NCBI RefSeq assembly: GCF_003334785.1
Contig: NZ_QOWV01000003.1
Strand: one strand, 5' to 3'
Origin: Escherichia coli
Lineage (GTDB): Bacteria; Pseudomonadota; Gammaproteobacteria; Enterobacterales; Enterobacteriaceae
Length of the DNA stretch: 64,000 bases
In this document: one piece after another, positions 3,751-52,003 of the stretch
How the letters are laid out: the number at the start of each line of letters is the position of its first letter
Position numbering within the stretch: the stretch's first letter is position 1
The notes under the pieces: model-generated
The model's database searches: none
Seen by the model: only the letters and a program-made list of their open reading frames with translations
Told to the model about the DNA's origin: nothing
Program-made: the position numbers and the translations under genes

Positions 3751-4482
3751 ATGAGCGAAATGATTTACGGCATCCACGCAGTGCAGGCCCTGCTGGAGCG
3801 CGCCCCTGAACGTTTTCAGGAAGTCTTTATTTTAAAAGGCCGTGAAGATAAACGTCTGTTACCGCTGATTCACGCCCTTGAGTCTCAGGGCGTGGTTATC
3901 CAGTTGGCAAACCGCCAATATCTCGACGAGAAAAGCGACGGTGCCGTGCATCAGGGCATTATCGCCCGCGTGAAGCCAGGACGTCAGTATCAGGAAAACG
4001 ATCTGCCGGATCTGATCGCTTCGCTCGATCAACCGTTCCTGCTGATCCTCGACGGCGTAACCGATCCGCACAACCTCGGCGCGTGCCTGCGTAGTGCGGA
4101 CGCCGCAGGCGTTCATGCGGTGATTGTGCCGAAAGATCGCTCCGCACAGCTCAACGCTACGGCGAAAAAAGTAGCCTGCGGCGCGGCAGAAAGCGTTCCG
4201 CTGATTCGGGTGACTAACCTTGCGCGCACCATGCGTATGTTGCAGGAAGAGAATATCTGGATCGTCGGTACGGCAGGCGAGGCGGATCATACACTCTATC
4301 AGAGCAAAATGACCGGACGCCTGGCGCTGGTGATGGGTGCGGAAGGTGAAGGTATGCGTCGCCTGACTCGTGAACATTGCGATGAGTTGATCAGCATCCC
4401 GATGGCTGGAAGCGTTTCTTCCCTGAACGTTTCGGTTGCGACCGGAATTTGCTTATTTGAAGCGGTGCGCCAGCGCAGCTAA
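3751..4482 (+). CDS. rlmB: 23S rRNA (guanosine2251-2'-O)-methyltransferase
   Basis: 243-aa ORF recognised as RlmB (SpoU family); gene order after rnr. Confidence 0.92.
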
Positions 4483-4502
4483 TTTCTCAGAATTATGAAA
4501 AG

Positions 4503-4529
4503 CCATCCAGATTTGGATGGTTTTTTTTT
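4503..4529 (+). terminator. rho-independent terminator after rlmB
   Basis: Stem CCATCCA/TGGATGG followed by T9 run. Confidence 0.75.
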
Positions 4530-4608
4530 GTCTATAGCTGGTAAGATAATTACGTATTGCAAATATTCATTTTATTAATATTTAAACTTAATCTATATGG
4601 AATAATAT

Positions 4609-5010
4609 ATGACATGGAATCCGTTGGCGCTAGCGACGGCGCTGCAAACTGTACCTGAACAAAATATTGATGTAACAAATAGCGAGAACGCATTAATTAT
4701 TAAAATGAATGATTATGGCGATTTGCAAATCAATATTCTTTTTACTTCCCGCCAAATGATTATCGAAACCTTTATTTGTCCGGTGAGTAGTATCAGCAAT
4801 CCAGATGAATTTAATACCTTCTTATTAAGAAATCAGAAGATGATGCCGTTGTCATCGGTAGGGATCTCCAGCGTACAACAGGAAGAGTATTACATTGTTT
4901 TCGGGGCGTTATCGCTTAAATCTTCTCTTGAAGATATCCTGCTTGAGATAACCTCGCTGGTAGATAACGCATTGGATCTGGCTGAAATTACAGAAGAATA
5001 TTCACACTAA
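4609..5010 (+). CDS. yjfI: DUF2170-family protein YjfI
   Basis: 133-aa ORF recognised as YjfI; first gene of yjfIJKLMC cluster. Confidence 0.85.
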   Translation: MTWNPLALATALQTVPEQNIDVTNSENALIIKMNDYGDLQINILFTSRQMIIETFICPVSSISNPDEFNTFLLRNQKMMPLSSVGISSVQQEEYYIVFGALSLKSSLEDILLEITSLVDNALDLAEITEEYSH

Positions 5011-5777: not shown

Positions 5778-6437
5778 ATGTCTGGTTTTTTCCAGCGTCT
5801 GTTTGGCAAGGATAATAAGCCAGCTATCGCTCGTGGTCCGCTGGGACTTCATCTCAATAGTGGCTTTACGCTCGACACGTTAGCGTTTCGTTTGCTGGAA
5901 GATGAATTGCTGATTGCGCTGCCGGGTGAGGAATTTACGGTAGCCGCCGTCAGCCACATCGATCTGGGCGGCGGTAGTCAGATTTTCCGCTACTACACTT
6001 CAGGCGATGAGTTTCTGCAAATCAATACCACCGGCGGCGAAGATATTGATGACATTGATGATATCAAGCTCTTTGTCTATGAAGAGAGCTACGGTATCAG
6101 TAAAGAGAGTCACTGGCGCGAGGCGATCAACGCCAAAGCGATGGGAGCAATGACCTTAAACTGGCAGGAAAAACGCTGGCAGCGATTTTTTAACAGCGAA
6201 GAACCGGGAAATATCGAACCCGTCTACATGCTGGAAAAAGTAGAAAATCAAAACCATGCCAAATGGGAGGTCCATAATTTTACCATGGGCTACCAACGGC
6301 AAGTAACCGAAGATACTTACGAATATTTGCTGCTAAATGGTGAGGAATCTTTTAACGATCTCGGCGAGCCAGAGTGGTTATTTTCGCGCGCGTTGGGTGT
6401 CGATATCCCGCTGACATCACTTCATATTATTGGTTAA
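5778..6437 (+). CDS. yjfK: DUF2491-family protein YjfK
   Basis: 219-aa ORF recognised as YjfK. Confidence 0.85.
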   Translation: MSGFFQRLFGKDNKPAIARGPLGLHLNSGFTLDTLAFRLLEDELLIALPGEEFTVAAVSHIDLGGGSQIFRYYTSGDEFLQINTTGGEDIDDIDDIKLFVYEESYGISKESHWREAINAKAMGAMTLNWQEKRWQRFFNSEEPGNIEPVYMLEKVENQNHAKWEVHNFTMGYQRQVTEDTYEYLLLNGEESFNDLGEPEWLFSRALGVDIPLTSLHIIG

Positions 6438-43931: not shown

Positions 43932-49483
<5,552 letters not shown>

Positions 49484-49485
49484 CA

Positions 49486-49827
49486 ATGCGAATATTTGTC
49501 TACGGCAGTTTACGCCACAAACAAGGCAACAGTCACTGGATGACCAATGCCCAGTTACTGGGCGATTTCAGTATCGATAACTACCAGTTGTATAGCCTGG
49601 GCCACTATCCAGGCGCAGTTCCGGGGAACGGAACAGTACACGGTGAAGTTTATCGTATTGACAACGCCACGCTGGCCGAACTTGATGCCTTGCGCACCAG
49701 GGGCGGTGAATACGCGCGCCAGTTGATTCAGACGCCGTACGGGAGTGCATGGATGTACGTTTATCAACGACCCGTCGATGGATTAAAGCTAATTGAAAGC
49801 GGCGACTGGTTAGACAGGGATAAGTAA
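49486..49827 (+). CDS. ytfP: gamma-glutamylcyclotransferase-family protein YtfP
   Basis: 113-aa ORF 2 nt after tamB stop; recognised as YtfP. Confidence 0.88.
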   Translation: MRIFVYGSLRHKQGNSHWMTNAQLLGDFSIDNYQLYSLGHYPGAVPGNGTVHGEVYRIDNATLAELDALRTRGGEYARQLIQTPYGSAWMYVYQRPVDGLKLIESGDWLDRDK

Positions 49828-49838
49828 TAATAAAAGCA

Positions 49839-49864
49839 CGCCACCTTCGGGTGGCGTTGTTTTA
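49839..49864 (+). terminator. rho-independent terminator of tamAB-ytfP
   Basis: Stem CGCCACC-TTCG-GGTGGCG followed by TTGTTTTAT. Confidence 0.8.
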
Positions 49865-50206
49865 TGCGATGTATCTCGCGATTTTTTTTTGTAACTTTTC
49901 CATCTTTTGCTTTTCTCTCCGAGCCGCTTTCCATATCTGCAATCGCATAAAAAACTCTGCTGGCGTTCACAAATGTGCAGGGGTAAAACGGGGGCACGCT
50001 TTGAACGGTGAGTATGAGTGAGGTCGGCTAACTTCCAGCAAGTGGCTATGAACAGCAAAATGGTGGTCGGGTTTGCTTGTTCTTACCGTTCAAGCCTTGC
50101 AACCGCTGAGAATAATGATGGTGGAATAGAGAGTTTATTTATCGCGGGCATAAAAAAACCCTTACTAACCGAAGCCCGGCGTTCAGGGTTATTGCGCTAG
50201 AAGAAC

Positions 50207-50737
50207 TTATTTATTCTTTGCGCGCTCGAAGGAAGCAACGATTTCAGCTTTAGCGGCTTCTGCGTTTTCCCAACCTTCAACTTTCACCCACTTGCCTTTT
50301 TCGAGGTCTTTGTAGTGCTCGAAGAAGTGAGCGATCTGCGCTTTCAGCAGCTCTGGCAGATCGTTAACGTCTTTAATGTGATCGTATTCTTTGCTCAGCT
50401 TTGTGTGCGGAACAGCAATCAGTTTCGCATCTTCACCGGCTTCGTCGGTCATTTTCAGAACGCCAACCGGACGGCAACGGATCACAGAACCCGGCTGCAG
50501 CGGGTACGGAGTCGGGACCAGTACGTCAACCGGGTCACCGTCCAGAGACAGGGTGTGGTTGATGTAACCGTAGTTGCACGGATAGAACATCGCGGTGGAC
50601 ATGAAGCGGTCAACGAACAGTGCGCCGCTCTCTTTGTCGATTTCGTATTTGATCGGATCTGCGTTAGCCGGGATCTCAATAACAACGTAGATGTCTTCCG
50701 GCAGATCTTTACCCGCAGGGACGTTGAGTAAGCTCAT
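50207..50737 (-). CDS. ppa: inorganic pyrophosphatase
   Basis: 176-aa ORF recognised as Ppa. Confidence 0.95.
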
Positions 50738-51046
50738 GTCTGTTTCCTTTAAAAATATGTGGCAAACAAGTGCCGAGTATTATAGCCAACTCGCGCCGAA
50801 TGTCTTCGCTTGTTTTCGTCTTCATTTTCCTTTTTCGCCAATTTTAAGACGGTATACAGAGCAGGAAAATCCATAACCGTAGCCGCATTTTTCATAGTGA
50901 GATGAAAGCGATTACAAACTTGTGATTAACGTTTTATTTACTTCTTTGAAGTGTGATGTAACGCAATCCGTTACATAACGAATTGTCTATAGTTTTTTCG
51001 CGAACATCTTTTCACCAATAATAATTACCCCGACGAGGACAACCCT

Positions 51047-52003
51047 ATGTGGAAACGCTTACTTGTAGTCTCTGCAGTCTCGGCAGCCATGTCGTCTATG
51101 GCGTTGGCCGCTCCATTAACCGTAGGATTTTCGCAGGTCGGATCGGAATCTGGCTGGCGCGCCGCAGAAACCAATGTGGCGAAAAGTGAGGCCGAAAAAC
51201 GCGGAATTACGCTGAAAATTGCCGATGGTCAGCAAAAGCAGGAAAACCAGATTAAAGCGGTACGTTCCTTCGTCGCGCAAGGGGTGGATGCGATCTTTAT
51301 CGCTCCGGTGGTTGCGACTGGTTGGGAACCGGTATTAAAAGAGGCGAAAGATGCCGAAATCCCGGTCTTCTTGCTCGATCGTTCTATTGATGTGAAAGAC
51401 AAATCTCTCTATATGACCACCGTCACTGCCGACAACATTCTCGAAGGCAAGTTGATTGGTGACTGGCTGGTAAAAGAAGTGAATGGCAAACCATGCAACG
51501 TGGTGGAGCTGCAGGGCACTGTTGGGGCCAGCGTCGCCATTGACCGTAAGAAAGGCTTTGCCGAAGCCATTAAGAATGCGCCAAATATCAAAATTATCCG
51601 CTCGCAGTCAGGTGACTTCACCCGCAGTAAAGGCAAAGAAGTCATGGAGAGCTTTATCAAAGCGGAAAACAACGGCAAAAACATCTGCATGGTTTACGCC
51701 CATAACGACGACATGGTGATTGGTGCAATTCAGGCAATTAAAGAAGCGGGCCTGAAACCAGGCAAAGATATTCTGACAGGTTCTATCGACGGCGTACCGG
51801 ATATCTACAAAGCGATGATTGATGGCGAAGCGAACGCCAGTGTTGAACTGACGCCGAATATGGCAGGTCCCGCCTTCGACGCGCTGGAGAAATACAAAAA
51901 AGACGGCACCATGCCTGAAAAGCTGACGCTGACCAAATCCACCCTTTATCTGCCTGATACCGCAAAAGAAGAGTTAGAGAAGAAGAAAAATATGGGGTAT
52001 TGA
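51047..52003 (+). CDS. ytfQ: ABC transporter periplasmic sugar-binding protein (galactofuranose system)
   Basis: 318-aa ORF with signal peptide recognised as YtfQ. Confidence 0.92.
   Translation: MWKRLLVVSAVSAAMSSMALAAPLTVGFSQVGSESGWRAAETNVAKSEAEKRGITLKIADGQQKQENQIKAVRSFVAQGVDAIFIAPVVATGWEPVLKEAKDAEIPVFLLDRSIDVKDKSLYMTTVTADNILEGKLIGDWLVKEVNGKPCNVVELQGTVGASVAIDRKKGFAEAIKNAPNIKIIRSQSGDFTRSKGKEVMESFIKAENNGKNICMVYAHNDDMVIGAIQAIKEAGLKPGKDILTGSIDGVPDIYKAMIDGEANASVELTPNMAGPAFDALEKYKKDGTMPEKLTLTKSTLYLPDTAKEELEKKKNMGY

Follow-up and report, generated by a model that had tools for sequence, protein, structure and literature searches.

The chpSB-less ytfP-ppa interval of an Escherichia coli strain as a probable deletion derivative that retains a chpB remnant

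Introduction

The ChpS-ChpB pair (ChpBI/ChpBK) of E. coli K-12 is a type II toxin-antitoxin operon of the MazEF/PemIK family, reportedly described by Masuda et al. in 1993, and another chromosomal toxin-antitoxin locus, ccdO157, is said (Mine et al., in 2009) to have decayed within E. coli. In MG1655 (NC_000913.3) the gene order is ytfP, chpS (b4224), chpB (b4225), ppa, and the ytfP-ppa interval measures 886 bp. Pastorello et al. (2013; mBio 4:e00206-13, PMC3735183) surveyed this site in 47 genomes and found chpBS in 53%, esiB in 15% and neither in 32%, with direct repeats around esiB and a single repeat where esiB is absent; a presence/absence polymorphism of chpSB at this locus is thus already known from their work.

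Here we consider a 64-kb window (the whole stretch of DNA analysed) for which an earlier note had proposed that the ytfP-ppa gap is only about 380 bp and lacks chpS-chpB, the pair that in K-12 lies between ytfP and ppa. That placement is true of MG1655, and the gap proves to be 379 bp with the gene pair absent by open reading frame (ORF), tblastn and NCBIfam analyses. The locus is known to exist in several states, and the interval very probably represents the common one without chpSB, derived by deletion from an ancestor that carried the pair.

Results

Gene content of the ytfP-ppa interval

The window is ordinary E. coli chromosome, in which ytfP and ppa are, respectively, 99.7% and 98.1% identical in nucleotide sequence to their MG1655 counterparts. 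From the ORF listing and the sequence, the interval between them runs from 49828 to 50206, exactly 379 bp, and is laid out with its surroundings as follows.

45704-49483, + strand: tamB (ORF listing)
49486-49827, + strand: ytfP, encoding a gamma-glutamylcyclotransferase family protein and bordering the interval on the left (113-aa ORF; RefSeq annotation in matching genomes)
49838-49866, + strand: intrinsic terminator of ytfP, hairpin ACGCCACC-TTCG-GGTGGCGT followed by a T-rich tail (terminator scan)
49867-49990: remainder of the ytfP-chpS spacer, about 124 bp, ending at GGGGTAAAACG (blastn and pairwise alignment; about 1275-1398 of the MG1655 reference locus, L001)
49991-49999: junction filler of 9 bp, GGGGCACGC (alignments and coordinate search)
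50000-50124, + strand: chpB relic, equivalent to K-12 chpB codons 7-48 (blastn, tblastn, multiple alignment and codon-by-codon comparison)
50119-50124: TGGTGG at the second deletion junction (coordinate search and alignment)
50124-50129, + strand: what is left of the final chpB codon with its stop, GAA TAG (GAA TAA in K-12; sequence comparison)
50130-50206, - strand: chpB-ppa spacer, kept from the chpSB-bearing form (97.3% identical to K-12 over 74 nt)
50207-50737, - strand: ppa, encoding inorganic pyrophosphatase and bordering the interval on the right (176-aa ORF)
51047-52003, + strand: ytfQ (ORF listing; ytfR also lies in the window)

An assembly or sequencing artefact, such as a collapsed region, would also produce a short gap, and is vanishingly unlikely here: the 1,252-bp stretch comprising ytfP, the gap and ppa recurs at 100% identity in numerous independent complete genomes, the 24 kb around the gap are 100% identical in ML35, NCTC9100, NCTC9087 and many others, and the census described below, which found the allele in 2,322 complete genomes, refutes it.

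K-12 ChpS, searched by tblastn against the whole window, gave chance-level matches only (best E 0.035, in tamB) and none in the gap; with K-12 ChpB the sole match was to 50023-50106, over 28 residues (ChpB 15-42) at 50% identity (E 0.005), and is interrupted by an in-frame stop, such that no intact gene was found for either protein. The four longest ORFs in the gap (56, 60, 77 and 82 aa) are out of frame with chpB and, as a scan of all four matched no NCBIfam family, were treated as spurious. RefSeq places no annotation under the gap in the 29 genomes listed with the window's allele, and no Rfam family reached its gathering threshold in a scan of 49000-51200 (E of at most 1); the sole hit, an S15-leader match within the 3' end of ppa, was dismissed as chance, at 16.8 bits against a gathering score of 39.5. 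The promoter scan found no sigma-70-like promoter in the gap, a result that says little about survival of the chpS promoter, as the K-12 spacer, put through the same scan, yields none on its forward strand either.

The chpB relic and its deletion junctions

Local alignment resolved the window and the MG1655 reference locus (L001, whose coordinates are used for the junctions) into three colinear blocks.

49728-49990: L001 1137-1398, 89% identity; end of ytfP and most of the ytfP-chpS spacer
50000-50124: L001 1711-1837, 72.4% over 127 nt, E 2.5e-14 (blastn); chpB nt 19-145
50119-50306: L001 2033-2222, 96.3% identity; last codons and stop of chpB, chpB-ppa spacer and 3' end of ppa

A global MAFFT alignment of the gap with K-12 misplaced the relic onto chpS and was discarded in favour of local blastn and gap-tolerant pairwise alignment, by which chpS is gone and chpB is reduced to a relic. 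The earlier note was right that the gap holds no plausible ORF pair, but not that it holds just the ytfP terminator and ppa-proximal sequence, since part of the ytfP-chpS spacer and some 130 bp of chpB remnant (50000-50129) are also kept. The relic lacks a start codon, is interrupted by stops at codons 10 and 17, has lost 1 nt at each of codons 11 and 32, and by our own count still encodes the K-12 residue at 22 of its 42 surviving codons.

At the first junction, K-12 L001 1399-1710 (312 bp) is missing and 9 bp stand in its place. The missing segment comprises a GTTATAC-TTT-GTATAAC palindrome (L001 1417-1433), the chpS ribosome-binding site, the whole of chpS and chpB codons 1-6; such a palindrome is presumed to be an autoregulatory operator, as generally in type II systems. 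At the second, the 201 bp (67 codons) of chpB that in K-12 lie between copies of TGGTGG at nt 140-145 and 341-346 are missing, which suggests, from the repeats themselves, loss by slippage or microhomology. The 9-bp filler may be either diverged spacer or new sequence, and the two deletions may have occurred in either order; a history read from about 130 nt that are 28% diverged depends on few sites.

The ytfP terminator hairpin proper, at 49838-49857, is the same in K-12. On the ppa side, folding gives a minus-strand terminator-like hairpin at about 50150-50190 (AACCCU...AGGGUU, then a U run), whose fold energy is not better than that of shuffled sequences and which, from its position and U tail, may serve as a terminator. 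With the ytfP terminator and the ppa-proximal spacer intact, the neighbouring genes should be unaffected.

Allele distribution in E. coli

Allele-specific probes for the relic (window 49975-50140), K-12 chpS-chpB and esiB were run against 5,426 complete E. coli genomes. The probe for the relic was found in 2,322 of them, at 99% identity or more in 1,528, 95-99% in 120, 90-95% in 673 and 80-90% in one (HH45), K-12 chpS-chpB in 3,100 and esiB in 188, CFT073 included; about 39% of the 5,426 have the relic without esiB. Relic and chpSB counts sum to 5,422 with HH45 counted twice, so a handful of genomes carry neither allele and presumably have other arrangements like that of N50 (see below). The toxin-antitoxin presence/absence polymorphism that the earlier note had put forward is, then, real within the species (chpSB in 3,100 and the window's allele in 2,322 of the 5,426). 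Its description as strain-level stands in that strains do differ, but not if taken to mean a strain-specific or recent event, the same junctions recurring in B2 strains and in E. albertii. Two laboratory lineages that are close relatives carry different alleles, K-12 having chpSB and BL21(DE3) the window's relic at 100% identity.

A B2-type relic is found in 536, Seattle 1946 and CFT073, and B2 relic alleles differ from that of the window by 6-8% plus indels. Both deletion junctions are nevertheless common to all relic alleles examined, namely those of 536, KE26, N96, CFT073 (downstream of esiB), E. albertii and one further lineage (L011).

HH45 (NZ_CP116411.1; L004 2370-2635) has relic-type flanks around three odd pieces, in order a 131-bp insert of 79% G+C resembling a garbled 3' half of chpS, 101 bp that are 100% identical to K-12 chpB nt 19-119, and a relic-type 3' end; PGAP calls the locus a partial PemK/MazF pseudogene. 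We considered this structure as an intact intermediate, or missing link, but the record stands alone and its insert, at 79% G+C, is odd, so the idea was rejected; misassembly, or gene conversion over a short tract, is the probable origin.

Relatives of the locus and direction of change

Outside E. coli, other Escherichia species were taken from a collection with one genome per species. At the ytfP-ppa site, chpSB is intact in E. coli, in E. whittamii and in a further three Escherichia lineages, and the relic is present in E. coli, E. albertii NBRC 107761 (L013; 87.5% identity to the window's) and L011 (95.9%). Identity of the relic is 72-74% with Escherichia chpB and only 48-59% with the same-site chpB of other genera; the relic therefore derives from an Escherichia-type gene. 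Beyond the genus, chpSB occupies the same site in Lelliottia sp., Enterobacter asburiae, Enterobacteriaceae RIT691, Pseudocitrobacter and Kluyvera genomosp. 1, with 63-78% amino-acid identity and chpS starting about 214 nt past the ytfP stop.

L031, L043, L052, L070, L072 and L087, about 4052-4655: non-Escherichia chpSB homologues in the ytfP-ppa position

In many species of Citrobacter, Enterobacter, Klebsiella and Kluyvera, the gap between ytfP and ppa is truly short, at 100-170 bp, and chpSB is missing from it. Such gaps could be taken to mean that the window preserves a never-occupied ancestral site and that chpSB was inserted in the K-12-type lineage by horizontal transfer, toxin-antitoxin modules being often mobile. 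We regard this as very improbable for the window. A virgin site would hold no syntenic chpB fragment between K-12-like spacers, and the gap here is 379 bp, not 100-170 bp; furthermore, the intact chpSB of the other Escherichia lineages is 90.6-94.6% identical in nucleotide sequence to that of K-12, in step with the flanking tamB and ytfQ (89-94%), which points to vertical inheritance at this site. The relic thus argues for loss from an occupied site, and the absence of chpSB in the window is most readily read as a single old loss and not as a failure to acquire, since all relic alleles examined, including that of E. albertii, have the same junctions.

With regard to age, the relic is 12-13% diverged between the window and E. 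albertii and 27-28% diverged from intact chpB, about twice as much, which suggests, as far as these distances can be relied upon, that the loss is older than the split of E. coli and E. albertii. Homologous recombination of the relic allele, and not common descent, could however also have made the junctions common across species: the L011 relic is 96% identical to that of the window, yet 4-fold sites of tamB and ytfQ differ by 28-29%, and sliding identity to L011 and to E. albertii gives a pattern too mosaic to separate introgression from conservation. Between the window and E. albertii or L011, 4-fold sites are 11-13% diverged in ytfP and ppa and 28-41% in the adjacent tamB and ytfQ, so that either strong codon constraint or inter-species exchange of the core segment may account for the low values.

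A remnant that is old yet recognisable, with junctions conserved across species, might be thought to persist in 43% of genomes because it, or the gap, has a function, as a small RNA, a regulatory element of ppa or ytfP, or the 60-aa ORF at 50018-50200. Constraint on the relic seemed at one point to be indicated, as the relic differs from that of E. albertii by 12.8%, against 27% for 4-fold sites pooled over tamB, ytfP, ppa and ytfQ, and was dropped because the per-gene 4-fold divergence is just 13% in each of ytfP and ppa; the relic's divergence equals this local figure, is consistent with neutral change and gives no sign of constraint. The scans reported above for Rfam families, sigma-70-like promoters and NCBIfam matches, together with RefSeq annotation, identified nothing in the gap, its ORFs lie outside the chpB frame, and the B2 alleles vary by both substitutions and indels. 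We therefore hold a functional remnant to be very improbable, and a relic of an old loss that retains no residual function to be the likely reading of these sequences.

The intact genes and the relic might also be alleles whose coexistence dates from before the split of E. coli and E. albertii and is upheld by balancing selection, as both states extend beyond E. coli in the distribution given above. We consider this unlikely; were it true, the approximately 57:43 split in E. coli would reflect long-term balancing selection on the toxin-antitoxin pair, for example a gain in phage defence or under stress offset by some cost, and not neutral drift with recombination.

Other occupants of the ytfP-ppa spacer

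The spacer has received, or lost, other sequences elsewhere. Citrobacter sedlakii and one E. cloacae genome have separate chpB or chpS fragments (L034 3930-4062; L036 5600-5668), which would imply repeated independent decay of chpSB at this site. In E. coli FDAARGOS_1250 (NZ_CP069571.1 477168-479196) an IS1A is inserted in a ytfP-ppa stretch that is otherwise 100% identical to the window's allele. In E. coli N50 (NZ_CM165889.1; L088 1-42629), ytfP and ppa are separated by a P2-like prophage, about 36 kb long, together with a bgl-type operon (beta-glucoside PTS/GH1/licT); there, 64 nt similar to the chpB relic (78%) adjoin the phage integrase (L003 1241-1304), which suggests, on the strength of this adjacency, a phage attachment site in or near the spacer. 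The occurrence of chpSB, esiB, IS1, and a prophage with a bgl-type operon at one spacer confirms that, across Enterobacteriaceae, genes have turned over there repeatedly.

Discussion

Proposed history and significance

The preferred reading of the interval, as a deletion derivative, would begin with a chpSB-bearing ytfP-ppa locus. One deletion would have taken out the operator palindrome, the whole of chpS and the 5' end of chpB up to codon 6 (the 312 bp in K-12 terms), with 9 bp put in, and a second the 201 bp of chpB between the TGGTGG repeats; the leftover chpB would then have diverged, roughly at the pace of synonymous change nearby, until about 72% identity was left, acquiring its two stops and two frameshifts. 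On this account the locus would give the strain neither toxin (the ChpB endoribonuclease) nor antitoxin (ChpS).

The strain is thus without one of K-12's MazF-like endoribonuclease toxin-antitoxin pairs, a point of little import past bookkeeping. It is relevant, nevertheless, to comparisons of toxin-antitoxin repertoires and to the use of K-12 toxin-antitoxin deletion strains as a reference, given that BL21(DE3) also lacks chpSB. A small addition to the existing picture is that the 'empty' and esiB alleles appear to be deletion derivatives still holding a chpB fragment, from which the direction of change would be loss, and that loss old.

Comparison with known systems

Relative to ChpS-ChpB of K-12, the window has the same ytfP-ppa site, both spacers are homologous and 50000-50129 comes from an Escherichia-type chpB. 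It is without chpS, the operator palindrome and the start of chpB, and is not a working toxin-antitoxin system. An intact ORF for a PemK/MazF-fold toxin (ChpB, 116 aa) was not found in the window; the antitoxin gene (ChpS, 83 aa), which would lie directly upstream of and overlap the toxin gene, falls within the 312-bp deletion, as does the upstream palindrome; and the relic is syntenic in its ytfP-ppa location. As a toxin-antitoxin system, therefore, the locus fails three defining features and retains just the positional one.

The window corresponds to the 'neither' state in Fig. 1C of PMC3735183, with ytfM(tamA)-ytfN(tamB)-ytfP beside ppa-ytfQ and one hairpin repeat: the gap contains neither chpBS nor esiB, the window is colinear with CFT073 on both sides of a 1.6-kb esiB insert, and, as expected where esiB is absent, GCCACCTTCGGGTGGCGTT, the short repeat whose symmetry is partly inverted, occurs once (49840-49858), in comparison with two copies flanking esiB in CFT073. 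The accessible part of that paper terms this state 'absent' and mentions no chpB remnant, whereas both the window's state and the esiB allele carry a decayed chpB. Within the literature searched, limited to papers outside subscription journals, we found no description of a chpB remnant in 'absent' or esiB alleles.

In CFT073 and further B2 strains, the allele with esiB (c5321) has the same relic-bearing backbone, spacer and junctions as the window, with the chpB relic downstream of esiB. It differs in having a 1.47-kb SEL1-repeat gene between duplicated ytfP terminator hairpins, where the window has one hairpin and no esiB. The CFT073 hairpins flanking esiB lie at L002 4347-4372 (upstream, window-like) and 6001-6027 (downstream, with a K-12-like tail), so that the flanks appear to be a mosaic of two spacer haplotypes.

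Finally, the locus resembles what is reported for ccdO157 in that a chromosomal type II toxin-antitoxin module, always in one intergenic position, is whole in some strains but decayed or absent in others. It differs in toxin family and location, and in that a single deletion allele, apparently old, is here spread across phylogroups and into E. albertii.
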